Virus record (IMG/VR): IMGVR_UViG_3300030107_004408
Location: 1-58,737 of that record
From: a virus
Taxonomy: Duplodnaviria > Caudoviricetes
DNA: 58,737 bases
Direction: 5' to 3' (one strand)
Of the stretch, positions 3,620 through 56,411 are shown one piece after another (positions within the stretch are counted from its first letter, which is position 1; each line of letters starts with the position of its first letter). Made by a program: the position numbers and the translations under genes. Under the pieces are notes generated by a model. The model searched no databases. It was not told the origin of the DNA and saw only the letters and a program-made list of their open reading frames with translations.

Positions 3620-4073
3620 CTTAAAATATTCAGAGCCTAAATGCCTAAGCTTAGCGCGTTAAATATGTTTCGCCGTAGGATAACGATATGCGTTTAACAT
3701 ATATTAAGGTTAAGGAATTTCGACTAAGGTTGTAGAAAAATAGATTTCTGGGACGCGTTCGATCAGCGGTTACGCCGATTTGCGCATTATATGGCAATAA
3801 TGTACTAATAACCTTATTCACCCTACGATTAGTCATTAGCCACCTGATGATAGTGACGGTTAAACCTATGTTTTCGTCGATGCAACATCATATGGGTTTT
3901 CTTGGCCGGTGTATCCTCTGAATAAAAAAAGAATAACCACGGGGGGGTGGTTGGTGGTAGGCGGGGCTGTGCAGTATATGGACCCACTGACTAGCAAGGT
4001 CGTTTGACGGGAATCAAACCTGCTCTTGTGTCGGTTGAACCTGCATTATCGTTAAATAGTTTAATACCCTGAA
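3620..4073. promoter_or_regulatory. AT-rich control region (promoters/operators, possible origin)
   Basis: Non-coding and AT-rich; shares motifs with 55970-56178; lies upstream of the replication genes. Confidence 0.5.
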
Positions 4074-24600: not shown

Positions 24601-27600
24601 TTTCCAGTTTTACTTTCAGCGGAAGATTAGACGGATCTGTAAGACTGTTGTGCAGGAACATATCCCACAACGGATCACGCATAGATGTTGGGATGGCCGC
24701 AGACATTCCCGTCTTCAGCATAATCGGTGCTTCAGTCAGGCCATCCCAAGTGACGTAAGATTCCAACAGCTCTCGGGTGCGGTCTGCTATTGCACGCTCT
24801 TTGCGCTCACTTGCTGTAAGTTTTTCTCCAGTGGGCTTTTTGGCGCCTTTTGGAATTACGCCGGCTTCTTTCCTGGCCTTTCTGCCGAGCCAATAGAGGT
24901 CGTTGCCCATGTCGTCGACTAGGTGTTGGATCGTTTTTACGATTTCCACCATGTCTTCGTTGAATTTCCCTCCGATTATCGCGCTCGCAGGATCTTGGAA
25001 ATTCCTTAGAAATTCCTGCATTTTATTGATGCCCTGCGCAATGACACCGCTTTTCCCTGCAACTAGGCGAAGTAGTGCTGGATCCTTCCTCACGTTTTCC
25101 AGCATATCGGCTACCCGTAGGCCGGCAGCTTCGGGGTGTATGTCGAAAAATACCCTACGCAGTTCTTCTGGAAGACCCGTTAACGCTTCAACTTCTCTGG
25201 CCTGTAAGCGTAATTGTTTTGGTTTTCCCTGCTGTTTCCATGCTTTGCGTAAATTCTTATAAGTATCGGAAGCGATGCCGCCTACAGTGGCTCCCTTGTT
25301 TGCCCCAGTTGGGCGTGCAGTCGCTGCCCTGCGTACGGCTTTGCCGTAGATTGAATCTATTTGGGAAAACAAGCTCGGCGCATCTACAGTTCTGCCTAAT
25401 GTTTTCTTATCTTCTTTAGAGGTAAATGTGGCCAGCCAATCGTATGCGCTACCTTGACGTTCTGGCCCTTGGAGGGTGTGGCGAAACTTAGACCACCAAC
25501 TAGCCCTAGGGCGCATGCCATTGGCTACGCCTTCAGGTACTGCCTTTAAGGCTGCGTACCCACGCCTAAGCTCGTCTGCAACGTCCCGATAAACGTTACC
25601 TACCAGCTCAAGCTCACGCTGTTGCCGTGCAGCCGACAGCATGTCAGACACAGCATTTGATACCATCTCAAAATGGCGCTTAAGGTTTTCCTGAGATCCT
25701 TTCCAAAGAGTTCCTAGCTTTCTAGATACAGCTTCATTGGTTTTACGGGCATCTCTTGCGGTTCTCTTAAGGGCCTTTTCAGTATCCTTGTACCACTTTC
25801 CGACGCTTGCTGGGTACTTGATAGTACCCCGGTGCAGGTTCCTCTCTGTTAATGGCAACTCTCGTACAATGTCGTGCCCGATGTCTTGGTTTAGCTTGTG
25901 GCTTGCCGTCATGATTTTCTGCGTGGCAATATCTGCACGCTTGCCCGGTTGGGCGCATTCATCGAAATACGGCTTCAGGGCTTCTTGGGCCTTCTTGAGT
26001 TCTGCTTCTGCAGCTTGCGTCTTTGCCCTGGCTTTTTCTAGGTCTTTCTTCGCAGCCTTGAGGCGTCGTCGTAGGGTGTCCGCTTGCTTCGGCGTGATCA
26101 GCAGGCCTTGTGCAAACTCTTTGAACTCATCCAAGTTTAAAAGACCGGTCGGCATTTCTGCAGTCGGCAAGCTACCTGTTTCTACAGCTCGTCTTGTATT
26201 AGCAACACTCTGCTCTTGAAGCTCTTTCAGCACACCTTCGGCTTTAGCTTGCTGCGCAGACGCACGGTCGTGGACACCGTTGGCGCGTTGGGCTTCTCTG
26301 ACTTCGTTTTTGTATTTGTTGTCAATTCCGTTGAAGACTTCTTCAAGCTCGTCTAACTCTTTTTCAGCCGCAGCTACTGTGTCGTCATAGTGCTTAGCAA
26401 AAGGAGCATTATTTTTTGCTACTCCTTGGAAGTTCTCCAAAGTTTTCTGGGCATGCTGTGCTTCTATTTCGGTAGCTCTAAATTCATTCAAAGCCGCATC
26501 AATTTCCCATGAGCCATGGTTGGGCGTTGCTTCGTATGGGGCTCCGTATCTACCGGTATCTGGATCTCTCCTAATCACAAGCGGTTGGCCCTGCCTTGCG
26601 TCTTCTGCTGCTTTCTTCGCTTCCCCGGCACGCCGGGGCATCATCCCCGTTTCACTCGGAATGGGAAGAGGCTTCCGTTCTGGCGCCCAAGCATTGAACC
26701 TAGCTTTCGGATCGGCCAGTAAAATCTCGTAGTCCCGCACGGCCTGCTGGGTAGATTCCAAAAGCTCGTCAGCAGATCGCCAAGTTCCAAGTTCTTTTTG
26801 CCCGAGGAGGCGCAGTGTTTTAGGGTTATCCAGCGTGCGCGTCACGTATGGTACTGGTTGTATTTGACCCGATTCTATCAGTATGCGGATTCTTGCATTG
26901 CCCAACCCTTGGAGCACTAAGTCTTTGCCTGCTTCGCTTAGGATCGGGAAAGGAGCATACGCGGCAGCTCGTCCCAGAGCTGGGTTCATTCCCAGTAGCT
27001 GCCTAGTTGCGCTTTCGCCCAGAGTCAGGACGGAATGCTCAATCAAGTTGGCGGCCTGGACCCCTGCAGTTTGTGCCTTTTCCAGCTCGTAACCGTAGTC
27101 TAGGTAGGCGCCTACATCATCAGGATGTTTTGCGGCGGCCTTCTCATGTATTCTGGGGTCTGAGAATATCTCATCTGAGCCCTTGTGTTTAAGTGCTGCT
27201 CGGAGTTTTTCAGGGGTAATTGGCTTTGGCTTTTTCTTTCCAGCTTGTTTGGACACTAGTTCTTCTAGTGCGGCTACTCTCCTGCCGTGGCGAGCGGCCA
27301 GTGTAGAAGTTTGGTCTACTAGATCGCGGCCCAGCAGTGCCGCTTCATCTTCTGCAGCAAGCCTGAACGAGGGGGCATCGTCATAAATGCCTTTAGTGCT
27401 AGCTTCTTTCCTAGCTGTTGTTTTTGCCAGTTCAGCTTCTCGATGTCGGATACCCCTAACGAGATCGCCCTCTGTCTGTACCATGCGTGCGCCGATTCGG
27501 TCGCGCACGATGAAGGGCAGTGCTGCGTTTTTACTCCCCAACATCTTTTCAGCATGGGCATGCCGCTCTGCTAGCGGTGCGTCTTCGGCTAGACCAAAAG

Positions 27601-30600
27601 CTTTCGGATTATCGATGATCTGTTGGGCAGCTTCAAGGTGTTTGATGTTCCGGCCCATCTTGTACCGGAAGGCGGTGTGGTACAAGCGCCAACCACCTTT
27701 CGTCACCTTTGCTCCGATAGCTATACCACCGGTAAAGGGGTCTGGACCTGCGATGTCGACTATCCAGCCTCCTGCCTCTCCAATTCTTCCGGCCGTACGT
27801 TTCGCAGAATAAAGATCCGCACCTTCTAGGTCTGTACCTGCGTTTACAGCTTCCTGGAACAGGTGGTTCATATTTTCACTGAACCAAGCGCCCTCGTTCA
27901 CATTTTGGATGAGCATGGTATCGATGGCACCATTGCCCGTGCTTCCGGTGATTATCTTGTATTGAGCTTCAGCGTGGGCTCTTACATCGTTTCCAAATAC
28001 GGTAGACCCGAATGGCAGCATGTCTACTGCTACGCCAAGGGGAGTAAGCTCTGTTTTTAGCTTCTCTACTTCTTCCGCATACCAGTCGGTCTGTATGCCG
28101 TATTCCAAAGTGCGAGATTGGTTTCCGACAATGGTCATCGGAAACAATTTGTTTAGCCACTGGAATGAAGATTCTTTCTGAAAATCAACTACGGGTAAAA
28201 TTTCACCGTGAAAAAGTTCCGGGTCTACTGTGATGAATGTCCAGACCTCTTCGCCGTTTTCATCCAGTTTTGTTGTTTCTAAGCCTGTCGGAATGGCGAG
28301 CCCTGCAGCTTCTACCTGCTTCACTATCTGAGCAAATTCGACAGAATCTATTTGCTGATTAGGCTCAATTGGTTTTTTTAAGACTTTATTGGCATCGCCC
28401 ACATCAACAATTTTTGTGGTCAGCACCGGAACTTGCTTTACCCCCATGTGAACTGCTTGGCTCAAGTCCATTTCAGTGGGGTCTAGTCCTGCTTGCAGCC
28501 ACGCTGACCGATTAGACGGGTAATGTACATAGGCTTGGTTGTGTGACTGCCACGCCGCCATGAGCGGGCGAAGTGCCGGCGTGTACGACATCACGTTTTC
28601 TACAACACTGTCTGGGTCTTCGATGAAGAACGCGATGCCCCGGTTGCGCGACAGTACTCTTGTTACGTCAATCCAAGCTAGCCTTTCGGCTTCTTCTTTA
28701 AACTCCGCTATCTTATCATCAGGGATGGTGTGGGAGTGGGGTCCGAGATCTCGTGTCCCCAGGTATTTTGCAGCTTGTGCATCGTAATACCAGTTTCTTA
28801 GCCTATTTTGTAGGCCATCGTCACCGTCCAGCTTGATGGCGCCGTTGGGTAACCACTGGATAAGAACTTCCCCTGGAGGGGGGTACATACTTTCTTGTAC
28901 CTTTCTCGTTGCGTCAGCTTTGACCTTAGATAAAAGCTTTTCTTCCCTACTCTCCGGTGTCGAGTACAGACTTTCCTGATTGACTACCTTAGTTAGCCCA
29001 AGGTAGGGCTCAAGCATTGCCGCAGCGTGTGCAACTCCTATGCTGTCTTCGGCGGCTACACCTAGGTGGTCTGCCATCGACACTAGCTTTACGCCTTCTT
29101 CCGTGGCTACATACATCTGACGGTCTTTGTAGGCGTCTAGTTGCTTAGCACCAAAGCTGTTGGGTGCATGCGGCAGCTCCTTATACATGAGCGCAGGCGT
29201 AAACTCGTACATCGGCGCATACGAGCCTGGGTCTGATGGGTCGTAGTATTCCGGCAACCCTTCCACCCCAGCATAATTTATGACCCACCAGGGAGCTATT
29301 GACGGTGCTTGCATAGCGGATCTGATGTCGATCTCGCCCTGGGCTCGTATAGCAGCTTGCACACCAGAGTGTCCGATTTCGCCTGTGGCTATTTTTTCCT
29401 CAATCCTGAGCGTCTCGTTTTTAATGGAGTACCAAGCGTCCATTCGCTGCATGGCTGCGGGATCTCTTACTCCCTCCCTGAACCTCCTTTCGGCTTCTTT
29501 GCTCCTGGTATGCGCTCCCATGGCAGCAAACTGGCGTTCTTCTGCCGTAAGCATATAGTCAGTACCATCTGGCCCGATGTAGGCCACCGGAATTGGGAAT
29601 ACGCTTAGGCCGCCATTTTCCGGGTCTACGTATAGGCGCTCGTATTCTCCTAACTCTGGGTTCCAAACCTCCGTAGTTACCGGCCACACAATGTAGGGAG
29701 AGTGGGCAATGGAGCGGTTCCACCTGAACGGAGCCGATTCCATGGGAAACTTATTGGAATATTCCTGCTCCGCTTCGTGCCAAGCTTCCACCCAGGAAGA
29801 CACCGACTTAAGTGTCTTTGCCGTAGGGTGTTCGGGGTTTGAAGTTTGCAGTGCAGCCAGCACATCTCGATCAACACGAAACGGCGTAGTTGCAGTTCTG
29901 TCTACAAAGGTTTCATGCCGCCTAGGCCAGGGGTCTACTCCAGTCAATCTGCGGAATGAAGACGCAAACATGTCTTCTTTTGCGGCATGCAATGCAGTGC
30001 CACCTATGGCTACGCCATCCCACCCAGGTAGCCGTGCTCTGTTGCTGTGCCCAATATTCTCAGCATCGTAGACAGTTGATAGCAACTGGTTTTCGCCGCC
30101 TTCGCCTTCCTTGACATCTCTAGACGATATTTTCAATTGGCGAATTGCTTGTGTGAATCCCAGCATTTCTTGGGGATTCGGGCTTCTGGCCGATTTAAGT
30201 AGCTGCTCTCGGTAGGCATATACATGCCTAGCTTCTGCTTCAAACGCCTCTTTCCAGGCAGGGTCTTCTGGGCCGCTGAAGGTTATCAACCGGGCAGTGC
30301 CATCTCTGTCACGCATAACGTGGCGATTTAGACGCCTGTCGTACCTTACTTTTTCTTCGGTATAAGGTATGTATTGAAATTCTCTGCCAGATATTTCAGC
30401 AATCTTTTTCGGGCTACCTGCCTTTGCAAACGGATCCGTTGCAATACTTACTTCTTTTTCGGTACCTTCTTGGGATAGCCAGAAGTAAGCTGCCCGGTGG
30501 GCTGGCAGACCATTGATGTGGAGCCAACCATGGGTCTTGGCTTCATCTCCCCAGTTCGGATCTACCATCATGGCTCTGGATCTACTTGCTACGAAGGCGT

Positions 30601-32752
30601 CCAGCTCGTGCGTGTCTACAATTTTGTGCGCCATAAGGGATTCTATTTGCCCTTCTGGAGTCTGACTGGCGCCACCCTGCGCCGCCTTTACCATTTCGGC
30701 AGAAGCGTTATCTAAGTCAATAATACCTCTTCTAGCATTTGCCCTAAGGTGTGATGCCTTGGTCAGCCATTCCTTATCTTCTGCCCGTAGGAGGTGGGTC
30801 TGTTGTTGCATCTCCTCTTGGAGTTGCTTTTCTAGCCACTGCTCCATTGCTTCGGAGTCTCTAGACCAGTGTCGGCTTACGACTACCTTGTCCCCTATGA
30901 TGTCAGCAACCATGCCTTCGGCGAGTTCAATCTCGTCGTAAGGGTTCAAAGAACCATATTGCAGTGCTTGGCTTTGCTTATTCTCTCCACCAAAAAGAGG
31001 TGCTATACCCGTCATATGCCACAAGGCCGCAGCGCGCTCCTTCCTCTTGTAGTTATAGGCCCACATTTCACCGTGAGCGTGTCCGTAGTCCAGTCTCCTT
31101 TGGAACTCTGCTCTTCGTTTTTTGTAGTCCTCCTCGGCAGCTTCTCGGAGTAACCGCTGGGTTACCTTTGCTTGATCGGAAAAAGAGGTTTGCTCAAAAC
31201 GCTGCTGTTCTACCAGGTGGCCTTCTACGTCTCCAGTACCGATGTAGTACATGCGGGCTTTATTATGGTGATCTGTAAATGTTTCAGATGCCGCATTTTC
31301 TAGCTTAGCTGTGAGGGCATCGAGATCTTCTTGGCTGTCGAGGGTGGGCGCATGCTTTAAGGCTTCTATGCCTACGTCGGCAGCAGATTCCCCCGTAAAC
31401 AGCGCATCAGATATTAGCCTAAGCTCATCTGCCGTGAGTACCGTCTCCCCGTCTTTGTTGACACTCCCGTGGCCAGCGGCAAGCAGCTTCTCCTCCATCT
31501 CTTCCATTTCATCAGAAAAAGATTTTTGCAGCATTTCTTCTTCTAAGCGTTTTTGCGCTTCAATAATAGCCTTTTCGGGATCCATACCGCCGTCGATTAG
31601 CTCACGCTCGATCCTGTAGAACGCCACTGCCCATTTCAAGTCATCGCTAGCGTCGGGCCGTAAGATTTCGGCCCAAGTTTTCGGGGACGGCTCTACAACC
31701 CACTCGGCCTTAGTCTCATTTTTTCGCCAATAGTCCGGTTTTATGACGATCTGATAGCTCTCGGGAAGGCCCGCAAACTTGCGGTGCTTGTAGTAGTCTG
31801 GCTGATAAAGCAACGAATTGGCGGCATCCGTATCCGTAACGTTGCCTTCTGCAACCTGATCGAAATTGGATACAAAATTGCCGTCTTTTACGCTAAATCC
31901 ATAAAGGGTATCTGCCCGTGAATTCCAACGAGCAAATTCGTCTCTAACTTCCTTTTCCATTATTTTGCCCCACACCATCTCAAGTGGGGCTTGGATTCTG
32001 TCCGATTTAACTACTACGGCAGGCCCAACGGGATGTGTGTGGAGTTCGTATAAGTCTTCTGAGTCTCTTGTTTTCCGCCCGTCGATTTCTATCTCACCGA
32101 ACGAGGGTACTTTGTATACAGTGTATGTGTATACGTTCATGCGCCGGGCGCGGTAGCCCTCGGGGATTTCAGCAGGCTTGTATTTTCCTTCCCAGTAGAA
32201 GCCAAACTCGTCGTCAATGATATCTAAATCTGGCCCTGTAGTTAATCCAGCCTCTTTCGCTGCAATAGCAGCATCTTGCTCAGACGGAAGGGATCCCAGC
32301 CCAGTGGTGGGTACTTCGCTTTCTGGGATTAGGGATCCTGTACCTTTCAGTTCCATTTGGCCCAGAGACGCCAGCCGTTGGGTTTCCCTGGCGGCATCGA
32401 TCTGGGCTTGCTTAACTTGGACAGCCTCTTCTGCTATTTTCTCTGACGATGGTGTGGGGAGCTGAAAGTCGCCCCCCAAAGTTGTATCTGTCGCCGCAAA
32501 TCTGGCAAACTCTGACTGTACATCTGCAATATATTTATTGGGGTCAAATTCAGTGCTTTCTTGTTGCTTTTGCACTGCAGAAGTAGACGAAAAGCGTACG
32601 TACCGCTCAAAGTCGGCCGGGTACATTCCGTACTTTCTAAAGTACTTTTCCGCAGGGCCGTCTGGGTCAAAAGAATCGTCACGCAGCTCGTCATCGCTGG
32701 GTGGCTTGATCCTTATTTCCGACCCTTCCGGCGTCTCTTCGGATTCACTCAT
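21656..32752 (-). CDS. Giant (3698 aa) probable internal virion/ejection protein
   Basis: Last of three genes after the tail genes; coiled coils; LYDW...MPFWRF segment resembles large polyvalent protein C-termini. Confidence 0.7.
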   Translation of the reverse strand: MSESEETPEGSEIRIKPPSDDELRDDSFDPDGPAEKYFRKYGMYPADFERYVRFSSTSAVQKQQESTEFDPNKYIADVQSEFARFAATDTTLGGDFQLPTPSSEKIAEEAVQVKQAQIDAARETQRLASLGQMELKGTGSLIPESEVPTTGLGSLPSEQDAAIAAKEAGLTTGPDLDIIDDEFGFYWEGKYKPAEIPEGYRARRMNVYTYTVYKVPSFGEIEIDGRKTRDSEDLYELHTHPVGPAVVVKSDRIQAPLEMVWGKIMEKEVRDEFARWNSRADTLYGFSVKDGNFVSNFDQVAEGNVTDTDAANSLLYQPDYYKHRKFAGLPESYQIVIKPDYWRKNETKAEWVVEPSPKTWAEILRPDASDDLKWAVAFYRIERELIDGGMDPEKAIIEAQKRLEEEMLQKSFSDEMEEMEEKLLAAGHGSVNKDGETVLTADELRLISDALFTGESAADVGIEALKHAPTLDSQEDLDALTAKLENAASETFTDHHNKARMYYIGTGDVEGHLVEQQRFEQTSFSDQAKVTQRLLREAAEEDYKKRRAEFQRRLDYGHAHGEMWAYNYKRKERAAALWHMTGIAPLFGGENKQSQALQYGSLNPYDEIELAEGMVADIIGDKVVVSRHWSRDSEAMEQWLEKQLQEEMQQQTHLLRAEDKEWLTKASHLRANARRGIIDLDNASAEMVKAAQGGASQTPEGQIESLMAHKIVDTHELDAFVASRSRAMMVDPNWGDEAKTHGWLHINGLPAHRAAYFWLSQEGTEKEVSIATDPFAKAGSPKKIAEISGREFQYIPYTEEKVRYDRRLNRHVMRDRDGTARLITFSGPEDPAWKEAFEAEARHVYAYREQLLKSARSPNPQEMLGFTQAIRQLKISSRDVKEGEGGENQLLSTVYDAENIGHSNRARLPGWDGVAIGGTALHAAKEDMFASSFRRLTGVDPWPRRHETFVDRTATTPFRVDRDVLAALQTSNPEHPTAKTLKSVSSWVEAWHEAEQEYSNKFPMESAPFRWNRSIAHSPYIVWPVTTEVWNPELGEYERLYVDPENGGLSVFPIPVAYIGPDGTDYMLTAEERQFAAMGAHTRSKEAERRFREGVRDPAAMQRMDAWYSIKNETLRIEEKIATGEIGHSGVQAAIRAQGEIDIRSAMQAPSIAPWWVINYAGVEGLPEYYDPSDPGSYAPMYEFTPALMYKELPHAPNSFGAKQLDAYKDRQMYVATEEGVKLVSMADHLGVAAEDSIGVAHAAAMLEPYLGLTKVVNQESLYSTPESREEKLLSKVKADATRKVQESMYPPPGEVLIQWLPNGAIKLDGDDGLQNRLRNWYYDAQAAKYLGTRDLGPHSHTIPDDKIAEFKEEAERLAWIDVTRVLSRNRGIAFFIEDPDSVVENVMSYTPALRPLMAAWQSHNQAYVHYPSNRSAWLQAGLDPTEMDLSQAVHMGVKQVPVLTTKIVDVGDANKVLKKPIEPNQQIDSVEFAQIVKQVEAAGLAIPTGLETTKLDENGEEVWTFITVDPELFHGEILPVVDFQKESSFQWLNKLFPMTIVGNQSRTLEYGIQTDWYAEEVEKLKTELTPLGVAVDMLPFGSTVFGNDVRAHAEAQYKIITGSTGNGAIDTMLIQNVNEGAWFSENMNHLFQEAVNAGTDLEGADLYSAKRTAGRIGEAGGWIVDIAGPDPFTGGIAIGAKVTKGGWRLYHTAFRYKMGRNIKHLEAAQQIIDNPKAFGLAEDAPLAERHAHAEKMLGSKNAALPFIVRDRIGARMVQTEGDLVRGIRHREAELAKTTARKEASTKGIYDDAPSFRLAAEDEAALLGRDLVDQTSTLAARHGRRVAALEELVSKQAGKKKPKPITPEKLRAALKHKGSDEIFSDPRIHEKAAAKHPDDVGAYLDYGYELEKAQTAGVQAANLIEHSVLTLGESATRQLLGMNPALGRAAAYAPFPILSEAGKDLVLQGLGNARIRILIESGQIQPVPYVTRTLDNPKTLRLLGQKELGTWRSADELLESTQQAVRDYEILLADPKARFNAWAPERKPLPIPSETGMMPRRAGEAKKAAEDARQGQPLVIRRDPDTGRYGAPYEATPNHGSWEIDAALNEFRATEIEAQHAQKTLENFQGVAKNNAPFAKHYDDTVAAAEKELDELEEVFNGIDNKYKNEVREAQRANGVHDRASAQQAKAEGVLKELQEQSVANTRRAVETGSLPTAEMPTGLLNLDEFKEFAQGLLITPKQADTLRRRLKAAKKDLEKARAKTQAAEAELKKAQEALKPYFDECAQPGKRADIATQKIMTASHKLNQDIGHDIVRELPLTERNLHRGTIKYPASVGKWYKDTEKALKRTARDARKTNEAVSRKLGTLWKGSQENLKRHFEMVSNAVSDMLSAARQQRELELVGNVYRDVADELRRGYAALKAVPEGVANGMRPRASWWSKFRHTLQGPERQGSAYDWLATFTSKEDKKTLGRTVDAPSLFSQIDSIYGKAVRRAATARPTGANKGATVGGIASDTYKNLRKAWKQQGKPKQLRLQAREVEALTGLPEELRRVFFDIHPEAAGLRVADMLENVRKDPALLRLVAGKSGVIAQGINKMQEFLRNFQDPASAIIGGKFNEDMVEIVKTIQHLVDDMGNDLYWLGRKARKEAGVIPKGAKKPTGEKLTASERKERAIADRTRELLESYVTWDGLTEAPIMLKTGMSAAIPTSMRDPLWDMFLHNSLTDPSNLPLKVKLERAEAAEIKRRRKLVAKRNAGTITEKQTEELRLILREEEISKQIAGRKKALRNMTAKQAEEGGKKVEREVAKLEKMKGKEPTWKEKWLDENYGPTWNSPMAEGNTFISWATHWWPSSSRAALTPDIAASITADAYKILEDTAKLMQKGELPTSKLAYEYAENRLRNATRVSSRKTLEDGTTAAAHADVDRDVTRATASGVMAITAGALKQHMWELTAKRILGTVTTKEAAAANKIWDGAYATLSEADLIAGYGVLNKMGMPVTTSYYRTAENAKRYHYMHKVATDSDGRALFMPQSVLKAVEDSLNVQGKEIGRLYQKSAEKGAEQQLGAMSTFNTLWKQSVITGTVIPRPQYVNTNLWGDWSQMVFGHGYEIGTRVTFNTLSGIPWWSERLGKSMDEVTDAVFRSRKGKGRQAPMHIMASPSSAVFNTWANKIWRGDNGVMRTAHGEVINFRQLRRELHESVLDTQVNEELLNYLTDVTKNAPWHAVGRWSDDIRWFAQHLQTRMRGNLYMELRVRRGFTQKEAVRAVRESLYDWKHGITKAEVATLCKVMPFWRFWRLAFKQMGRRVAEPLTKPNKAIMDSFTGRTALNRIRSQLNFRDRIYDGIIDPHVEGEIQSEQQWLDEMERHLRPDWMLGRALIGHQASPDPDFWVHSRGKPYQYEAMMLPPLTITDIGEIGASWMLGTGAALAHRYDGVQPDRPMSPGGTMGRTPWGTVTPGDWESFIFEPALNMLFPRYKEFLESFLLDAGVDTGGYEKGEYINVNEAEHNIMQKWDSAFGTQLTQRGKSPQFMIDAGAGEYEGRFQMHRGTWLFMQTMVPWVSVEVSGFLNNIYYQNPYAPRYNDLAEAYQKAEGDLGVAWNQIGPPRTPGDASQKSLMSAGWRALQNYSGFKWYPYEASKAFEMGDVWDLDDRGQVIQYRGRKAVTELGELSGEAARGSLAEENLDAYLPSPGTIVERTPEQEIEASKDLPIPRIYDDDEL

Positions 32753-50574: not shown

Positions 50575-52248
50575 TTAAAGCCAATACTTCTTCCGATTCC
50601 TCTTGTTTTTGTCTTTGTGAAGCTGTAACCGCTCTTTGTACGTGTATGGCCGCAATTCTATGATATTTGCATCAGGATCCGAAAACCCTGGCTTAGATCG
50701 GCGCGGAAGATCCCTTGCACCGATAATTGACATCATTAGGGCGCTAACTTTGTCCCAGTGATGCCGTTCTCTGCGTTTTCGGTTGGCCTCGCCTCTTGCG
50801 ATCTCCGAACTGGGGCCTTCTTCGATGTGTTTGTCGTTTTTGTACGACATAAGCTGTTCAACAGTATTTTCATCGTTAAGCTCAAGATCATCAAGAAGAG
50901 CATCGATTGTGTAGCCCAACATTTGGTCTAGAGACTTGCCCGTGGTGGTGAAGCCGGGTCTGCGGGCCTTTTCGTAGTAGAGATTGCGATAATCCCACTC
51001 CCGCAAGAGGCTCAGCACTGCTTGCCCAACACCATTGGATTCTACAACGATCCTAGCGTTGTTATACCGCTCACCAACCTCCATTAGCTTCCGCGTGAAG
51101 ATAATCGGGTCTACGTGTGCCGCATATGTGGCTACTTGGGTCCATTCCCCGTCATACACTTTCAAAACCTGAAAAGCGGCATGATCTCGGGCGGCGTGAC
51201 CACAGGGGTCGGCCCCGATTGCGTAAATTGCGCCTTCTTGTGGTTTTTCGTACTCCATATACGGCTCTTTCCATGGAGTAAGCTCTTTGTTCCGGTGCCT
51301 CTCCAGAGCATGGGACGGAATTGCGGCATTTGCGGCTGCAATCCAACAACTCAGATCGTCAAACGGGTAGAAAACCGGAAACAGGTCTGGCCTACGCCTG
51401 AGCTGCTGGTCAGTGGACAATAGAAAGCGGCGGAAGGCCAAATGTTCTTTTGTCAGCCCTTCTTTTTGGTATCGATTCATGAAATCGATTTCTTCGTTTT
51501 CTAATTTCCAGGATTTGTCCCAAGCACGCCTATTTAGAGCCCCATCCCAGAAGGGATAGAACTTAGCCATGTTTCGACCATTACCGGCTTTCGCTTCTAG
51601 GTAATGATGATGCCAATCTGAATTGGCTTCCCAGGGCGTACTCTCAAAAATCGCAATTGCGTTGTCTCGATTAACGAGAGAGGGCCAGATTAGGAACATG
51701 CTGCCCGAAAAGTCATCCCAGAACGGACACTCAGATGCGTGAAAGGAGTCAGGGCTCTGCCCAATACCCACTGCCCCAGATTCTGCGGAAAGGACACGCA
51801 TTTTGCCGCCCTGCATGGGCTTAAAGCTCAACTGCCTACTTTCTCGGGAATGTACCGTTGGGCTTCTTACGTCACCGGGCCATTTTTGGTGCAGGTGGTG
51901 AACACGTCGATGCAGATACTCCGCACGCGCAGCGTTATCCGCAATACAAACATGGTCCCAACCAGGATTATACGCAGCTAGTGGATAGCACCCGTACTCA
52001 ACACTGAGGGATTTACCCATCTGACGCGCAGTCAAAATAGTCAGAAACTTATTCTGATTATCCGAAGTCTGCGGTGGATTGGACAGGTAATCTAACACGT
52101 CCGTCTGCATCGTGGCAGTGATTCGCTTCGGATCGTAAGGAATAAACTGACTTGTCTTCTGGTCGTGCACTTGCCCAAAGGCAGGTAGTGACTTGGCAGG
52201 ATCCCGAAGGAAATTAAGAACCTGCTTCGGGGACGGTTTAGGCGGCAT
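50575..52248 (-). CDS. terL: Terminase large subunit
   Basis: ARQMGKS Walker A, FHASE Walker B variant, EST coupling motif, nuclease GADP...D, ESNGVG. Confidence 0.88.
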   Translation of the reverse strand: MPPKPSPKQVLNFLRDPAKSLPAFGQVHDQKTSQFIPYDPKRITATMQTDVLDYLSNPPQTSDNQNKFLTILTARQMGKSLSVEYGCYPLAAYNPGWDHVCIADNAARAEYLHRRVHHLHQKWPGDVRSPTVHSRESRQLSFKPMQGGKMRVLSAESGAVGIGQSPDSFHASECPFWDDFSGSMFLIWPSLVNRDNAIAIFESTPWEANSDWHHHYLEAKAGNGRNMAKFYPFWDGALNRRAWDKSWKLENEEIDFMNRYQKEGLTKEHLAFRRFLLSTDQQLRRRPDLFPVFYPFDDLSCWIAAANAAIPSHALERHRNKELTPWKEPYMEYEKPQEGAIYAIGADPCGHAARDHAAFQVLKVYDGEWTQVATYAAHVDPIIFTRKLMEVGERYNNARIVVESNGVGQAVLSLLREWDYRNLYYEKARRPGFTTTGKSLDQMLGYTIDALLDDLELNDENTVEQLMSYKNDKHIEEGPSSEIARGEANRKRRERHHWDKVSALMMSIIGARDLPRRSKPGFSDPDANIIELRPYTYKERLQLHKDKNKRNRKKYWL

Positions 52249-52596: not shown

Positions 52597-53303
52597 TACT
52601 TCTCCTTAGGTAGTCCCCGTCCAGGGCTGATCGGACTTCTTTCTCGGGGCTTGTAGTCCCGTCGCTCTGTTTCTGGGTTTCTTTGCTCTCGATCTACTTG
52701 CCTGCCGCCACCTGTTATTTCTGTTCCCTCCTCGCGCTCTCTCCAAGATTTTCCCCCCGGCTGAGCGGGAGCGGCGGATACTGCTATGATGGCATCTCTC
52801 TGCTCTGGTGTGAGTCCTTCCCATATAGCTTGCCGATCTTGCGGATCAGCGTCTGGCATGAAATCTGGAGGTGGCTTCTCGTCGGATCCCCTCTCCGGTG
52901 CCGCCTCCTGCCCCCTTTCGTCTGTTCCTACAAACCCTTCGCGATCCCATTTTGCGGCATCATCGCCTAGGCGCTTCTTGAAGTCCATGTGGTAAAGCTC
53001 TTCGCCCGGCCTGCTCTTTTTTCCTTGGTGTTTGGCCTTGCCTTTGGATTCTGTGTCCGCAGGTGGAGTGGGATCGGCAGGGTCGCCCTTGTTCTCCTTT
53101 GCTTCTTCCCGACCTTCTGGAGGGAGAGTGCCGCTGGGATTCGCTATCTTTACCATTCCACCGTGGGGCGCGTTCTCTGCAAGGAACTTCATCGCATCCT
53201 TGATCACGTCATCGTACTTGCCCTTTCCATAGTCCCGGTTTTCCTTACCCAAGTACTTCTTATCGTCGGGACTCTCTTTCTCTTCGGCGGATTCTTTTGC
53301 CAT
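52596..53303 (-). CDS. Highly charged, disordered hypothetical protein
   Basis: Long ORF with an AGAGGA SD. Confidence 0.55.
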   Translation of the reverse strand: MAKESAEEKESPDDKKYLGKENRDYGKGKYDDVIKDAMKFLAENAPHGGMVKIANPSGTLPPEGREEAKENKGDPADPTPPADTESKGKAKHQGKKSRPGEELYHMDFKKRLGDDAAKWDREGFVGTDERGQEAAPERGSDEKPPPDFMPDADPQDRQAIWEGLTPEQRDAIIAVSAAPAQPGGKSWREREEGTEITGGGRQVDREQRNPETERRDYKPRERSPISPGRGLPKEK

Positions 53304-54213
53304 AGCGTCGTTTCCTCTTACTCACAGTTTCTTGAGCACGTCTTGCGTATTTTGCCCAAGGGTGGTCTGGGTTTGCAATCCATTCCATCTTAGCGTGTTT
53401 TGACTGAAATACAATACCATCTGCATATAGCGGCCTATCCATTGGGTGCGCTACATAGCCTGACTGCAATGCTGCTTTGACTGCCGGGTGCCTTATTAGC
53501 TTATCCTGCGCATCCGTATATCTCCGCTTAGCGATACGCAACCCAGGCTTACGGGGCAAGGTCATGCCCTCCAACAAATACAGCGCAGCGGTAGCCATGT
53601 CGCGGTTTGTTACCATTGGCATAGGATCTATGCCTAGTGCCCAGAAGGCTAGCTTAGGAGTATCCATAATGTGGTTAATAGCTATTACTAACTGCTGCTC
53701 TGCATTCGGATCTTTTTTGCATAAGACGCTGCCCAAGATGTCAATAGGCATACCCATAAGCCACCACCTTAGCGTGGACAGGGCACATTTCTTATACATG
53801 GGCATATCTTGCGGAAACAATCCCCAGAAGTTTCTAGTCGGTTGTTGCAATATCGCACACGCCAACTCGTAGGGCGTAGGCGGATTATCCAGCCCCCATG
53901 CCGCTTTAGCCTTCGGCGGCCAGTCTTCAGGCGCTACCAGGAACTCGCTGTTTTCCCCGAATACCGCTTCCGCTATATCATGATCACTCCATAGCAACTT
54001 ACGGATGGCTAATATCTTCTTAGCCGCATGGGCTAAGCTGGCCGGGTACCCACCCTGCAATATCGGCACTTCCACATTTACTGCTACAGCCACATCCACA
54101 GCCTTGATTCCGAACACCCTAGCCGTGGTCCGGTTTGCCTTAGTGTGCAGCAGCCAATGTCCTAGTCCCCCGCTGTTGGTGCAACATATGTCGAATTCGC
54201 TGATATTAGGCAT
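53260..54213 (-). CDS. Hypothetical protein, first gene of the late strand (possible HTH segments)
   Basis: WSDHDIAEAVF and GMPIDILGSVL resemble HTH starts; weak evidence. Confidence 0.6.
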   Translation of the reverse strand: MPNISEFDICCTNSGGLGHWLLHTKANRTTARVFGIKAVDVAVAVNVEVPILQGGYPASLAHAAKKILAIRKLLWSDHDIAEAVFGENSEFLVAPEDWPPKAKAAWGLDNPPTPYELACAILQQPTRNFWGLFPQDMPMYKKCALSTLRWWLMGMPIDILGSVLCKKDPNAEQQLVIAINHIMDTPKLAFWALGIDPMPMVTNRDMATAALYLLEGMTLPRKPGLRIAKRRYTDAQDKLIRHPAVKAALQSGYVAHPMDRPLYADGIVFQSKHAKMEWIANPDHPWAKYARRAQETVSKRKRRYGKRIRRRERESRR

Positions 54214-54224
54214 TGTACCTACGT

Positions 54225-54265
54225 TATGGGCAAAAGTGATTTAGCAAAAATGGTTTGCATGTCAA
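54225..54265 (-). promoter_or_regulatory. Possible promoter of the late operon
   Basis: TTGACA at 54260-54265 on the - strand; the -10 is ambiguous. Confidence 0.35.
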
Positions 54266-54302
54266 TGAGACTCCATATACTAATACGGCAACGGCAAAAA
54301 AA

Positions 54303-54790
54303 GGGGATGCCTTGAGTTGAGCCGAAAGAATTGAGGCGAGACGAAAGGCTACGCTGGCAGGATCGCTACGACGAAGTCGGATCGTCACTGCAAGAGCGGG
54401 TTGTGCCCGAGCGAAGCGAGGCATAGCACAAGACCGGCACGAGGAACGAGTGTCCTTCTCCAGCGACGTAGTAATCCCCGTCTAGGCTTACGGGTTCCGT
54501 AAGGGGGAGGACGAGGAGCTAGCGACGAGGACGGTGGACGCTTGCTCTCCCCGGAGACTGCAACGCGATAACGCGTTGTCCTTCAGCGCAACTTGTTGCG
54601 CTACCGAGCGAGCGAAGCGAGCGAGGCGCCGGCGGCGGCCTAGGCTTCGCGGCGTAGCGCTAGGGAGCGAGCCCAACGGGGCGAGCGTTACGCGGCTGGT
54701 GATAGTGGCTGGTGGGTGGGTGGGTTGCATTGCATCCTCTGGGGTAGGGCTAGACCGCTAGCCGGTGAAGACTAGCGGCCTAGCGTTAGG
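54303..54790 (+). other. Highly structured non-coding region with GAA-triloop/tandem G.A hairpins
   Basis: Nested inverted repeats; GCGAAGC twice; see findings. Confidence 0.65.
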
Positions 54791-54793
54791 GCT

Positions 54794-55051
54794 CTACAGG
54801 TGGCGCGTCCACATGAAGTGACAGGCTAGGGCCTGTACCGCTAGCAGGGCTAGCAGTACGGGCGTCCGGATAAGGACGAAACCTAGCACCTCGGTGCGCC
54901 AGTCGTAGCGCTCGTGGGCTATCGCTCGGTGGGTGTCCTTCAGTCCTTGCCAGTAGGCAGCTAGCAGAAGACTGCTAGCCGCCAGGGCGCACACTGTGAC
55001 GCTCACCAGAGCGAAGAGGTCCCAAGCGTCGCCGGTGCCGGTGCCGCTCAT
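54794..55051 (-). CDS. Small two-TM membrane protein
   Basis: Two hydrophobic segments; ATG 55051 with GAGG SD overlaps the upstream stop. Confidence 0.55.
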   Translation of the reverse strand: MSGTGTGDAWDLFALVSVTVCALAASSLLLAAYWQGLKDTHRAIAHERYDWRTEVLGFVLIRTPVLLALLAVQALACHFMWTRHL

Positions 55052-55698
55052 GCTGCCACCTCGCGGCTGCGCTCGTCCTTCCATGCCTGCGCGATGGCGT
55101 CCGCTTCGCTCATGTCCTCGTCTTCCACTAGACCGCTAGCGTTGCGGTACATGCGCTTGATGCGCTTGGCATCTACCTCTGGGGTGTCGTCCGTGCCGTT
55201 GTTGAGCATCGCATTGGCCATAGCGATAGCGTCCCGCACATTGTCGGTCGCCAGCGCTGTCCGCAGTGCCATGTCCTCGCAAGCTTGAACCCCGATGCCT
55301 TCGGCGTCTGGGTAGAGTTCCTGAGCCTTGAGCTGCGCAGCCTTACGGGCCTCTCCGTCATCGCTCCAGTTGTAGAGGTGTGAGAAGTCGACTTGTTGCA
55401 AACCTCCTACGGCTCCACAGGTAGGACAGCAAGCCTTGCGGCCCTCTTCCTTGTTCCAAAGCCACTGACTGTCGGCACCGTCTTCCTTCCCTACGCGTAC
55501 GAGGCCGACCACATAGCCGGCAGCCTTAGACGAGACACCATTCTTCACGCGTTGCGCTATGGACCGAACCGGGATGGCTCGCGCTACGAGTTTGGTCCTG
55601 TCGTCTCCGAATAGGTCCGCATCGTTACGGGTGCTAGTGCTAGGGGCCTTGGCGCTAGGGGCGTTGGCTTTGCGGGTCTTGGTTGTCTTGGTAGTCAT
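55048..55698 (-). CDS. Leftward early hypothetical protein (CCPTC motif)
   Basis: acaacGGAGaaagtgATG leader as in other early genes; has its own promoter. Confidence 0.7.
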   Translation of the reverse strand: MTTKTTKTRKANAPSAKAPSTSTRNDADLFGDDRTKLVARAIPVRSIAQRVKNGVSSKAAGYVVGLVRVGKEDGADSQWLWNKEEGRKACCPTCGAVGGLQQVDFSHLYNWSDDGEARKAAQLKAQELYPDAEGIGVQACEDMALRTALATDNVRDAIAMANAMLNNGTDDTPEVDAKRIKRMYRNASGLVEDEDMSEADAIAQAWKDERSREVAA

Positions 55699-55755
55699 CA
55701 CTTTCTCCGTTGTGTGATGTGTGAAATCCGGGGCACCGTGCCCCGGTCGGTCTGT

Positions 55756-55798
55756 GTGACCTACGGTCACTATAGCGTGTTAGGGCTGCGGATTTCAA
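55756..55798 (-). promoter_or_regulatory. Leftward sigma70-like promoter + palindrome
   Basis: TTGAAA-18 nt-TATAGT overlapping GTGACC-gta-GGTCAC. Confidence 0.75.
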
Positions 55799-56140
55799 GG
55801 GTTAGGCATCATTGTTACATTTCGTTACATATGGCCTGACCTAGGCCTAGCGGTCTAGGCTTAGAGGCCTAGCCTTAGGGCGTTATCATAATAGTTGTAA
55901 TGTTAAGGTCGTTTCGAAAGGTCCGCAGCACAAGGCGGCCAGCGCCAGATCGGGCCGGGCCAGGCCTGGGATCAGCGGTCACGCCGGTTTAGTAGCTACG
56001 AGCAGCGGTTACGCCGCTTTGCTTCGCTGATGATAGTGAACTAAGAGCCTTAAGGTTTAATAGCCCAAGGTCTGGTGGCCTAACGTTAGATAAATCAGGC
56101 GCTCCACGTGGTGCACGCCCCAAAACCACCGTTACATTCA

Positions 56141-56178
56141 TTGACACGACCATATCCCAGGTTCAACCTGCATTATCG
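56141..56178 (+). promoter_or_regulatory. Possible promoter with a CAGGTT-c-AACCTG palindrome over the -10
   Basis: TTGACA-17 nt-CAACCT. Confidence 0.45.
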
Positions 56179-56199
56179 GAGGGTCAGTCATTTAGGGCT

Positions 56200-56241
56200 A
56201 TGAAACCCTAACCTAAACGGGCTAAGATGACCGTAGGTCAT
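56200..56241 (+). promoter_or_regulatory. Rightward sigma70-like promoter + palindrome
   Basis: ATGAAA-17 nt-TAAGAT overlapping ATGACC-gta-GGTCAT. Confidence 0.7.
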
Positions 56242-56411
56242 CGTTGATGACTTGGCGGAGCTATGTCTAGCTCCTTTGCTCTTTGGCATGGGCTGTTAAG
56301 CCCTTATAACTGTAGCAATCTTGTCGTGAGACACGTTGCTACTAACTTGTTTATCTCTTCGTTGGGGGGAGGTTGCATAGGCTTAGGCTTATGTAGCCTC
56401 CCCCACCTTTT
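56235..56411 (+). ncRNA. Candidate structured leader or small RNA
   Basis: Four hairpins; the last has an ~18 bp stem followed by a T-run. Confidence 0.4.

Follow-up and report, generated by a model that had tools for sequence, protein, structure and literature searches.

The cos sites of lambda and HK97 (with an HNH partner), SPP1 pac and the T7 concatemer-junction hairpin are all elements next to terminase genes. What defines the known cos and pac sites is that terminase binds and cleaves duplex DNA there, and they are read as duplex, with no hairpins needed; we know of no cos, pac or terminus site that has been described as an array of hairpins with G.A mismatches. The promoter hairpins of phage N4 are extruded by supercoiling, and the Rep-binding element of adeno-associated virus (AAV), which consists of tandem GAGC repeats, is bound as duplex by an HUH-helicase protein.

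DNA mini-hairpins also serve as landmarks on single strands; a review (PMC13037366) names the G4 origin, RSF1010 ssiA with its RepB' primase and the N4 promoters, and mentions reports of poor SSB binding and of nuclease resistance.

Here we describe a non-coding, hairpin-bearing stretch of about 400 bases in a marine tailed phage (Caudoviricetes; IMGVR_UViG_3300030107_004408); “the window” is the whole stretch of DNA that was analysed, 58,737 nucleotides. Positions 54296-54724 are non-coding and under selection; on the plus strand, and only there, they fold well into an array of some twelve small hairpins, built of Watson-Crick steps of 2-5 bp split by tandem G.A/A.G mismatches and mostly capped by C-GNA-G triloops. 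The array adjoins a conserved unique block and heads the leftward late/packaging operon.

With the d(GCGAAGC)/d(GCGNAGC) mini-hairpins of Hirao and colleagues (PMC13037366), the phage hairpins share strand specificity and C-GNA-G triloops in which N takes all four bases (GAA, GGA, GCA, GTA). Unlike them, the phage triloops cap longer stems, in which 2-3 Watson-Crick pairs alternate with tandem G.A at a four-base period, and they are arrayed by the dozen; nor does a DNA energy model reproduce the high stability. RSF1010 ssiA/ssiB (RepB' primase) and the G4 complementary-strand origin likewise have strand-specific DNA hairpins with a GAA-type mini-hairpin on unwound DNA, and our phage encodes a primase; the ssi signals, however, are portrayed (PMC13037366) as single hairpins of ~40 nt that occupy a mapped origin, on both strands, whereas the phage array consists of many hairpins on one strand and has, as a class, a link to terminase. 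Shared with the N4 virion-RNA-polymerase promoters are the GGA/GAA caps, stability on one strand and a place on the template strand for the genes to the left; but the N4 hairpins, by that account (PMC13037366), are few, have 5-7 perfect pairs and stand before early genes, and the window contains no detected homologue of the virion polymerase.

Like cos, pac and terminus elements, the array adjoins packaging genes, in that it heads the TerL operon, and its hairpin class is terL-associated across phages; in Burkholderia phages a hairpin of the class lies beside an HNH gene, a likeness to cos-type sites. The arms of its 23-mer, with their runs of GAGC/GCGA tetranucleotides, recall the AAV Rep-binding element. 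A structured early-sense element in a late/early divergent gap is also found in HTVC027P, a marine podovirus of ~58 kb, in the form of the Flavobacterium-1 RNA (RF02976, a motif on which our literature search found no paper), but this RNA lacks the G.A/GNA design, neither the window nor its relatives contain a sequence or model match to it, and the neighbouring genes are not homologous.

Gene Setting and Layout of the Array

An initial annotation of this DNA had placed a large structure at an early/late boundary, and the array does lie between the leftward early cassette (55698-54794) and the head of the late/packaging operon, where the 317-aa gene starts at 54213. It is 2.05 kb upstream of terL, with three genes between, and the divergent early promoters lie 1.1-1.5 kb away. 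Every motif named in that annotation (at 54369, 54407, 54437, 54604 and 54667, together with the perfect hairpins and the enclosing helices) was found in its place; arm A1, the best arm, had been overlooked, as had GC-gta-GC at 54652-58. The parts of the locus, with the hairpins drawn from the sequence, are:

54246-54311, plus strand: conserved unique block, with AAAAATGG at 54246-53, GAGACTCC at 54267-74, A7 at 54296-302 and GGGGATGCC at 54303-11
54254-81, plus strand: sigma-70-like promoter TTTGCA-16-TATACT inside this block (9/12 match)
54303-54479, plus strand: Domain 1, with closing helix GGGGAT (54303-08) / ATCCCC (54474-79) and four arms enclosed
54349-57 and 54460-71, plus strand: second helix of Domain 1, CTACGCTGG / CCAGC-gac-GTAG
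54309-54349, plus strand: arm A1, GCCTT-GA-GTT-GA-GCC-GA-AA-gaa-TT-GA-GGC-GA-GAC-GA-AAGGC, with three GA/GA steps in a row and a loop of GAA
54369-54379, plus strand: mini-hairpin CGAC-gaa-GTCG
54407-54421, plus strand: hairpin CC-GA-GC-gaa-GC-GA-GG
54437-54453, plus strand: hairpin GCAC-GA-G-gaa-C-GA-GTGT
54487-503 (loop GTT), 54561-78 (loop ATAA) and 54585-602, plus strand: perfect 7-bp hairpins
54503-52, plus strand: stretch closed by GGGGAG/CTCCCC, containing two GACGAGGA repeats
54604-54626, plus strand: 23-mer CC-GA-GC-GA-GC-gaa-GC-GA-GC-GA-GG
54652-58, plus strand: GC-gta-GC
54667-86, plus strand: GC-GA-GCCC-aacg-GGGC-GA-GC
54695-54724, plus strand: right edge of the element, with GCTGGTGA, TGATAGTG, GCTGGTGG (54708-15) and the G-tract GGTGGGTGGGTGGG (54711-24)
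53260-54213, minus strand: 317-aa gene, first of the leftward late/packaging operon, whose homologues mark the locus in relatives
50575-52248, minus strand: large terminase gene (TerL), in the same operon as the 317-aa gene
55798-55769, minus strand: promoter TTGAAA-18-TATAGT (10/12 match), upstream of the 216-aa/96-aa early cassette

The conserved block aligns with 12 relatives of the adjoining 317-aa gene (alignment A2) and has no second copy elsewhere in the phage genome; the sigma-70-like promoter inside it has a conserved counterpart in 0 of the 12. Both helices of Domain 1 are present in the DNA minimum-free-energy fold, every listed pair being standard, and the GCGAAGC heptamer itself occurs at 54411 and 54612. 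The 317-aa protein has 0 Pfam and 0 PHROG matches and a poor structure prediction (mean pLDDT 55.6), and the 216-aa protein of the cassette has no homologues in phage records. No tRNA or tmRNA genes were found in the window, and 53200-55800 has no DNA similarity to isolated phages; the best isolate match for TerL is Roseobacter phage CRP-7 (23% identity), in which the gene order upstream of terL differs. The contigs of run X1 leave 54677-54721 uncovered, with none spanning it, and break a second time near 20.5 kb, in ordinary coding sequence; we attach no meaning to either break. A proposed genome-wide repeat motif, TCTAGGCTTA, was discarded (6 matches vs 3.8 expected).

Structure of the Plus Strand

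Tandem-GA hairpins, defined as two Watson-Crick pairs, GA/GA and two more Watson-Crick pairs, were counted against 1000 local dinucleotide shuffles. The plus strand of 54303-54690 carries 7, with a shuffle mean of 0.87 (at least 7 in 0/1000 shuffles), and the minus strand of the same interval carries 0; the structure first noticed is real and strand-specific. GNA triloops on stems of 2 or more are likewise in excess on this plus strand (8 vs 2.19; at least 8 in 2/1000 shuffles). Over the whole genome, the 25 tandem-GA hairpins of the plus strand amount to a chance total (24.9 in shuffles), with no REP/MITE-like dispersal, and 7 of the 25 fall within one 375-nt stretch. Near the locus, the minus strand has no cluster of GNA or G.A hairpins, the sole one (55756-70) being half of a palindromic operator pair.

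The whole region folds modestly better than its shuffles, both strands alike (z -1.9 to -2.2). Under the DNA nearest-neighbour model, which like the RNA model is not parameterised for these special loops, the 23-mer is marginal (-0.7 kcal/mol, z +1.5) and arm A1 reaches -4.8 (z -1.95); as RNA, arm A1 reaches -15.9 kcal/mol (z -4.9, 0/200 shuffles as good) with -8.6 for its complement, and the 23-mer folds exactly as drawn, at -6.1 vs -1.9 for the complement. Since the DNA model rates the mini-hairpins as marginal, the exceptional stability claimed for them as DNA is taken from the literature and not from calculation. The stems under GAA loops measure 1-4 bp between mismatches, and the longest perfect one, CGAC/GTCG, has 4 bp.

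Conservation of the Fold

A natural variant strain, represented by contigs assembled from runs X3 and X4, differs by 23 substitutions and 4 indels in the 244 nt of 54238-54481 and by 1 substitution in the adjoining 54020-54237 (218 nt, 194 of them coding). Arm A1 of the variant has two-sided changes from T-A to C-G (54312/46), from T-A to G-C (54317/41) and from A-T to C-G (54327/31), a wobble T.G has become C-G (54318/40) and the pair 54321/37 is lost; four of the five changed pairs thus still pair, three via both sides. None of the 12 GA bases of the arm is altered, and of the G.A positions considered (n=20) 0 are substituted, so that the GA/GA pairs, whose conservation the initial annotation had wished to see checked, are kept alongside compensatory pair changes. 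In run X3 the hairpin at 54407-21 reads CC-GA-GCC-gga-GGC-GA-GG: a C inserted behind 54411 and a G inserted behind 54415 together make one extra C-G pair, and with A54414 changed to G the GNA loop is kept. The hairpin at 54561-78 is 3 nt shorter in the variant (a 3-nt skip at 54569-73) and, as we interpret the skip, can still form. Both Domain 1 helices are invariant in the variant and hence give no covariation signal there. By these compensatory changes, the hairpin fold is under selection.

Among the relatives of the 317-aa gene (n=17; 27-39% identity), the strand that corresponds to plus in the window carries 22 tandem-GA and 34 GNA hairpins, vs 7 and 11 on the opposite strand, and the GNA-loop and G.A hairpins come after the conserved unique block. 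The locus is kept without sequence identity: hairpin type and strand recur in distant relatives, and the region upstream of the 317-aa gene shows no primary-sequence similarity to them. When the leaders of the window and 14 relatives were taken together (15 leaders), 19 GNA triloops were counted vs 1.9 in shuffles, along with 3 of the complementary TNC type; 13 of the 19 are C-G closed, and RNA-type tetraloops are rare (GNRA 2/64, UNCG 1/64), in agreement with the DNA mini-hairpin loop type first proposed. The first early-sense ORFs of the relatives are not conserved among them and are missing from the window. A Chi-like GCTGGTGG as a conserved partner was not supported (with at most one mismatch, 11 on the equivalent strand vs 6 on the other, in 18 leaders).

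Occurrence in Unrelated Phages

The exact 23-mer of 54604-54626 is present at 32 viral-contig loci, amid many unrelated flanks, and also at 43 loci in a prokaryote genome collection. On one unrelated contig (L056), in a context with no DNA similarity to isolated phages, GTGC-GA-G-gaa-C-GA-GCAC stands beside the 23-mer, a near twin of the hairpin at 54437-53. A relaxed scan of viral contigs, using the core pattern of the 23-mer with free NN positions, gave 140 unique contexts, in 110 of which both inner pairs are complementary (chance 1/16); all four variable pairs are complementary in 75/140 (chance 1/256), through many pair types. The covarying non-GC steps of the family (AT/AT, AC/GT, GG/CC) favour a fold over a repeat that is read as sequence. 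Well-formed contexts are mostly intergenic (75/98). Runs of T4 or more lie within 15 nt of the hairpin in 15/98, only 5 of these 15 after a co-directional gene, and a terminator reading of the family was rejected. Rfam models run on 14 further hairpin-bearing loci returned tRNAs only, nothing overlapping the hairpins.

TerL is the large ORF beside the exact 23-mer in 6/9 unrelated contexts, and among the large ORFs near family hairpins (n=80), 26 match PHROG 38 and 14 match PHROG 2, both TerL families. In 32/85 dereplicated contexts a TerL-like ORF is no more than 3.5 kb away, vs 6/37 imperfect matches (38% vs 16%; Fisher P 0.014), a flawed control in which many members are probably decayed members of the family; no TerL was found nearby in 53/85. 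Of the 32 linked contexts, 24 have the hairpin upstream and 8 downstream of terL; the G.A strand runs antisense to terL in 18 of the 24, which is also the arrangement in the window. The terminase association of the class is moderate in size. In Burkholderia phages the 23-mer lies between the HNH gene and terS/terL, 1.3 kb from the linear record end. Distances to contig ends are close to expectation within 500 nt (7/40 vs 5.8; P 0.35) and give a weak signal within 1 kb (17/40 vs 11.5; P 0.04). As a companion of the hairpins in other phages, GAGACTCC/GGAGTC was rejected (5 in 85 contexts vs 3.7 expected). Our literature search found no description of this hairpin element, although supplementary motif lists might still contain one.

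Discussion

The explanation that we tentatively prefer is that the array acts at the level of DNA, as a signal on a single strand that belongs to the packaging or terminus end of the genome. The plus strand would become unpaired through end resection, replication or supercoil-driven extrusion and would then fold into compact mini-hairpins, poor substrates for single-strand-binding proteins and exonucleases, that may label or protect the genome seam close to the packaging site or terminus; packaging initiation, end processing and end protection are possible roles. The active form would be DNA rather than RNA, exposed by some such process and presumably recognised by a reader of the hairpins. 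Of the functions suggested in the initial annotation, that of a terminus or packaging signal gains support, of an indirect kind, from the hairpin class near the large-terminase genes of many unrelated phages. It counts against a packaging role that 2.05 kb and three genes separate the array from terL in the window, that the known cos and pac sites do without hairpins, and that terL is often found at seams between modules, places in which non-coding elements of any sort could accumulate; it counts against the DNA reading that the DNA energy model gives little stability while the RNA model folds the hairpins well.

A plus-strand RNA with tandem sheared G.A RNA hairpins, either a stand-alone ncRNA or a structured leader from which rightward early transcripts begin, is a reading that we think unlikely. 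The sigma-70-like promoter ends 22 nt before the structure, which makes such an RNA possible, and would start transcription ~15 nt ahead of it; RNA parameters fold arm A1 and the 23-mer well, and the hairpin-rich stretch of the relatives lies, early-sense, between a late gene and the first early-sense ORF. The architecture is similar in Pelagibacter phage HTVC027P, where a perfect TTGACA-17-TATATA faces a structured leader (z -5.0) that contains the Rfam Flavobacterium-1 RNA (90.2 bits) in the same orientation, but gp35 of that phage has no homology to the 317-aa protein, and the parallel is therefore an analogy only. Speaking against an RNA are 0 Rfam matches in the window at the gathering or E-value threshold (the best sub-threshold match has 21.9 bits vs a gathering score of 70) and none in the 17 relatives, loops of the C-GNA-G kind instead of the usual RNA tetraloops, a promoter that the 12 relatives do not conserve and the lack of a plus-strand terminator after the structure; the transcript would, moreover, collide head-on with the 96-aa and 216-aa genes, and relative to flanking genes the G.A strand shows no preference for the sense orientation ((+,+) in 12 contexts, (-,-) in 18). 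We consider an origin-associated single-strand initiation signal rather improbable: once the DNA is unwound, the PrimPol-helicase (5443-7641) or host primosome proteins would recognise the plus-strand hairpins and prime leftward DNA synthesis, as happens at ssiA/ssiB with RepB' in RSF1010. The phage does encode a primase-helicase (PHROG DNA-primase matches, E 2.8e-30), a helicase and a family-A polymerase, and GAA-triloop mini-hairpins belong to ssiA and the G4 origin (PMC13037366). Next to the array there are an AT-poor/GC-rich asymmetry and an A/T-rich stretch (54214-54300, GC 0.40-0.47), the conserved block is single-copy, as expected of an origin, and cumulative GC skew has its minimum at ~54.1 kb, a turn that is confounded with gene orientation. 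Yet the minus strand offers no mirror-image signals of the kind that RSF1010 pairs on opposite strands, no iteron array was recognised, and an initiation signal does not predict enrichment of the hairpin class beside the terminase genes of unrelated phages.

Selfish or fast-turnover mini-hairpin DNA that gathers in a tolerant intergenic seam, with no phage function, would fit the identical 23-mer amid so many unrelated flanks and the varying presence and copy number in homologous contexts (contigs of the L082 type have 1-2 copies after GGTACCTCTAT, HTVC027P 0 there), as well as a stretch that is GC-rich (0.58-0.68 vs ~0.51 for the genome) and evolves ~10x faster than its flanks; we judge it unlikely all the same, since the hairpins are concentrated at one locus and not dispersed, a like array occupies the same locus and strand in relatives at 27-39% protein identity, the fold is kept by compensatory changes and no nuclease or transposase gene adjoins. 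The array could instead be a barrier to leftward transcripts that insulates the 216-aa/96-aa early cassette from the late operon, with transcripts ending at ATCCCC-TTTTTTT (54308-54296). The cassette has its minus-strand promoter (55798-55769) upstream, seven T follow the closing helix and arm A1 on the minus strand, and CATCCCCC followed by T-rich sequence is kept in relatives; but the G.A design leaves the minus-sense hairpins weak (energies of the complements above), a 400-nt array far exceeds what a terminator needs, most relatives have no upstream co-directional gene to terminate, and a scan of 54214-54793 on both strands found no terminator-like site, all of which makes a barrier quite improbable. 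Hairpin promoters of the N4 type on the template (plus) strand, for which the 3698-aa protein would have to conceal a virion RNA polymerase, are very unlikely. GAA/GGA triloop hairpins do lie on the template strand of leftward genes, a giant 3698-aa ORF is present in the virion module, the commonest geometry of the family puts the G.A strand antisense to and upstream of terL (18/32), and N4 uses GGA/GAA-capped 5-bp hairpins (PMC13037366). The resemblance to N4 promoters noted at the start nevertheless breaks down on stem length (2-4 bp between mismatches, vs 5-7 perfect pairs), on the number of hairpins, about a dozen being too many, and on the downstream genes, which are late and packaging genes; the 3698-aa protein, further, has no match of any kind, to a polymerase or otherwise, in PHROG, Pfam, PDB-sequence, phage tblastn and atlas searches, a weak negative. 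As for low-complexity (GCGA)n-like sequence arising by chance without any selected structure, the 23-mer is nearly (GCGA)3-A-(GCGA)2-GC and the whole-region fold has a z of only about -2 on both strands, but local shuffles, compensatory changes, stem covariation over 140 contexts and conservation of the locus contradict this reading, which is barely credible.

Returning to a DNA signal at the packaging end, it is conceivable, though we would call it doubtful, that (two pairs, then G.A/A.G)n hairpins with GNA caps form a widespread, undescribed class of phage DNA element that marks the packaging/terminus end in many unrelated tailed phages, acting as folded ssDNA either within the machinery for the making or protection of ends or as a structure read by terminase or a partner nuclease. 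The array of the window is the richest of such arrays among those encountered, and the recurring hairpin design is probably an undescribed signal. Should the element prove to be RNA instead, it would still be a new class of structured RNA with an unusual architecture. Hardly any uncultured phage has a known packaging signal or known genome ends, and those that have been described are read as duplex; if this strand-specific class with covarying stems does recur beside terminase genes, it would provide a sequence-level marker of the packaging seam in metagenomic phage genomes. Such a recurrence would also hint that the formation or protection of ends, or priming, includes a step on single-stranded DNA, and it would show tandem sheared G.A pairs and GNA triloops put to natural use to an extent for which there is no earlier description.

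Genomic setting of the array

The window is the sole contig in its assembly and an entire phage contig of 58,737 bp; since its last ORF extends past the contig end, we take it to be circularly permuted.

Gene blocks and large terminase of the window
~56,263 across the coordinate origin to ~16,500, rightward: gene block including the PrimPol-helicase, a helicase and a family-A polymerase
55,698 down to 16,571, leftward: gene block including the large terminase, portal, capsid, a 1374-aa ORF and a 3698-aa ORF
50575-52248, in the leftward block: large terminase gene (terL)

The array of mini-hairpins with tandem G.A mismatches (about 54303-54690, + strand) occupies a 580-nt gap (54214-54793) and is 2.05 kb from terL. 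To the left of the gap lies the gene for a 317-aa protein, which opens the long late/packaging operon, and to the right a short cassette of leftward genes, with ORFs of 216 aa and 96 aa. The gap has a GC content of 0.58-0.68 versus about 0.51, and its + strand is G-rich. Among isolates, Roseobacter phage CRP-7 has the closest TerL (23% identity). The 3698-aa ORF (21656-32752, minus strand), part of the virion module, had no match in PHROGs, Pfam or PDB sequences, nor in isolated phages (central 1501 residues searched) or a protein atlas (central 1300-residue part searched).

Reality of the hairpins

All the hairpin motifs named in the initial annotation are present in the window at the positions it gave. 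It overlooked the clearest arm (54309-54349), in which three GA/GA steps follow one another below a GAA loop. The + strand of 54303-54690 carries seven hairpins in which a GA/GA step has two base pairs on either side, against a mean of 0.87 in 1000 local dinucleotide shuffles, none of which reached seven. These hairpins are strand-specific, with none on the minus strand. Across the genome their number is that expected by chance (25 versus 24.9 in shuffles), with 7 of the 25 inside the array stretch. Whole-region folding energy reaches only z of about -2, on both strands and with DNA or RNA parameters.

The locus in relatives and in a variant strain

At 45 marine metagenome loci we found genes for homologues of the 317-aa protein (27-39% identity), and the DNA upstream of them showed no alignable similarity to the window's array. 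Thirteen sequences have a unique block in common, on the strand equivalent to the window's + strand: AAAAATGG, a spacer of about 10 nt, GTGAGAGAGG..., a second spacer of about 25 nt and AAGGGGGGATGCC; it is single-copy in the window. Past this block several relatives carry GC-rich stretches with strong structure (z -3 to -6.5 with DNA parameters in L026, L033, L039, L041, L043 and L051; five others were unremarkable). In 17 relatives the equivalent strand holds 22 tandem-GA and 34 GNA hairpins, and the opposite strand 7 and 11. Fifteen leaders, the window's included, contain 19 GNA triloops versus 1.9 in shuffles, 13 of them closed by a C-G pair, and three of the complementary TNC type; among 64 tetraloops in the same leaders, two were GNRA and one was UNCG.

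A variant strain, seen in contigs from two public runs, differs from the window by 23 substitutions and 4 indels over 54238-54481 (244 nt), versus a single difference in the adjoining 54020-54237 (218 nt, 194 of them coding). Five pairs are altered in arm 54309-54349: three changed on both sides (T-A to C-G, T-A to G-C, A-T to C-G), one went from wobble to C-G and one was lost. None of the 17 scored substitutions hit the 20 G.A positions (chance 0.029 for this arm alone). In the variant of one run, hairpin 54407-54421 has a C inserted in one arm and a G in the opposite arm, and its loop reads GGA in place of GAA, so that a C-G pair was added and a GNA loop kept. Hairpin 54561-54578 lost three bases and, by our own reading, could still form. 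We take these changes as selection on the fold, with few independent events behind them since they come from one variant lineage.

A hairpin class across phages

The exact 23-mer hairpin of the array (54604-54626, + strand) occurs in 32 loci of a viral-contig collection, many with unrelated flanks, and in 43 loci of a prokaryote collection of much greater size, GC-rich archaea accounting for many of these. A relaxed scan, in which the G.A steps and the GCGAAGC core were the sole fixed positions, returned at least 116 loci and at least 140 unique contexts; with the G.A steps set by the pattern, it informs on the variable pairs and not on G.A conservation. Of the 140 contexts listed, 110 are complementary at both inner variable pairs (chance 1/16) and 75 at all four (chance 1/256), with GC, GG/CC, AT, AC/GT and other pair types. 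Well-formed hairpins are intergenic in 75 of the 98 contexts listed, and orientation relative to flanking genes is mixed. A T-run follows only 15 of these 98 hairpins, and the 15 are not typically behind co-directional genes. No Rfam family overlaps hairpins of the class.

The large ORF adjoining the exact 23-mer is a large terminase in six of nine unrelated contexts. Eighty ORFs of 380-760 aa lie within 3.5 kb of well-formed hairpins (from the 98 listed, with other sizes and duplicates removed); 26 match PHROG 38 and 14 match PHROG 2, each of which is a family of large terminases. A local phmmer network placed a TerL-like ORF within 3.5 kb in 32 of 85 dereplicated contexts among the matches listed, versus 6 of 37 imperfect-stem contexts (Fisher one-sided P = 0.014), an association that we regard as moderate, the imperfect-stem control being itself imperfect. 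The hairpin is 5' of terL in 24 of these 32, and in 18 of the 24 the G.A strand runs antisense to terL, the arrangement also seen in the window. Burkholderia phages of one family carry the 23-mer with an HNH gene on one side and terS/terL on the other, and 1.3 kb separates it from the end of a linear record.

Several of these loci have further features. In Burkholderia phage vB_SBP9 (PQ789808.1, 1720-2050), a reading frame that is unannotated, carries an HNH-type motif and lacks an ordinary start codon lies directly after the hairpin and downstream of an annotated HNH gene. Two contigs related to Pelagibacter phages (L082, 6320-6350, and L109) have runs of about 20 G after the hairpin in terL-upstream gaps. 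Locus L090 has a 300-nt gap (6030-6300) occupied by a tandem array of 17-nt units based on GATCGAACGAGCGAAGC, the GCGAAGC-type core in repeat form; the following gene is, on our own reading of the ORF start, capsid-like.

Other sequence features of the window

The genome's most strand-skewed 8-mer, TGATAGTG, occurs ten times on the + strand (1782, 3848, 5676, 14033, 16025, 17241, 21150, 54700, 56031 and 57102) and never on the minus strand, all copies lying between 54700 and 21150 going rightward. Three are non-coding, with extended similarity CTGATGATAGTGA, and some are simply Asp-Asp-Ser codons. TGATAGT is similarly skewed (15 versus 0). Non-coding 55960-56180 and 3757-4051 have short exact words in common in the same order (CAGCGGTTACGCCG, CTGATGATAGTGA, AACCTGCATTATCG) and could represent regulatory modules repeated among the rightward genes. 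The palindrome TGACC-GTA-GGTCA (55756-55770, minus; 56226-56242, +) lies 3' of the -10 box in two divergent sigma-70-like promoters (minus strand, TTGAAA-18-TATAGT; + strand, by our own reading, ATGAAA-17-TAAGAT) and looks like a putative shared operator of early promoters. At the right array edge (54695-54724, + strand), GCTGGTGA is followed by GCTGGTGG overlapping the G-tract GGTGGGTGGGTGGG; GCTGGTGG, an octamer of the E. coli Chi type, has just two copies in the genome, and both are on the + strand. CTAG is concentrated in 54001-56000 (25 of 187 copies), often as GCTAGC, CCTAGG or CTAGCG.

Possible roles of the array

That the array specifies a + strand RNA is possible, if rather doubtful. 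A sigma-70-like promoter lies 22 nt upstream, but it is not conserved; the RNA energy model folds the array hairpins well and as drawn, and under the DNA model the mini-hairpins are nearly without stability. There is also an analogy, albeit one without gene homology, in Pelagibacter phage HTVC027P (L240, MN698241.1), where the equivalent divergent gap between late/packaging and early modules contains the Rfam Flavobacterium-1 RNA (7543-7663, 90.2 bits) behind a perfect TTGACA-17-TATATA promoter; taken whole, the 431-nt leader folds at z -5.0. A priming signal for the PrimPol is unlikely, and selfish hairpin DNA more so. We consider a leftward transcription barrier improbable. N4-type promoters are very improbable, and a chance origin is scarcely credible.

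We tentatively favor, at well below even confidence, a DNA-level role for the unpaired + strand at a packaging or terminus seam, because the loop repertoire is of DNA type, fitting the mini-hairpin rule (GCGNAGC, any N; PMC13037366) and avoiding common RNA tetraloops, and because the hairpin family does not favor the sense strand of neighboring genes and clusters at packaging-module heads. Since folded mini-hairpins are reported to bind SSB poorly and resist exonucleases (PMC13037366), the mechanism we infer is that the folded + strand could serve as a landmark or shield in packaging initiation, end processing or end protection. No Rfam family matches the array, and neither arrays of this sort nor a terminase-linked class of hairpins was described in the literature searched. 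We place the array among DNA mini-hairpin signals, a known kind, with a genuine possibility that it stands for a new class of packaging-end element.
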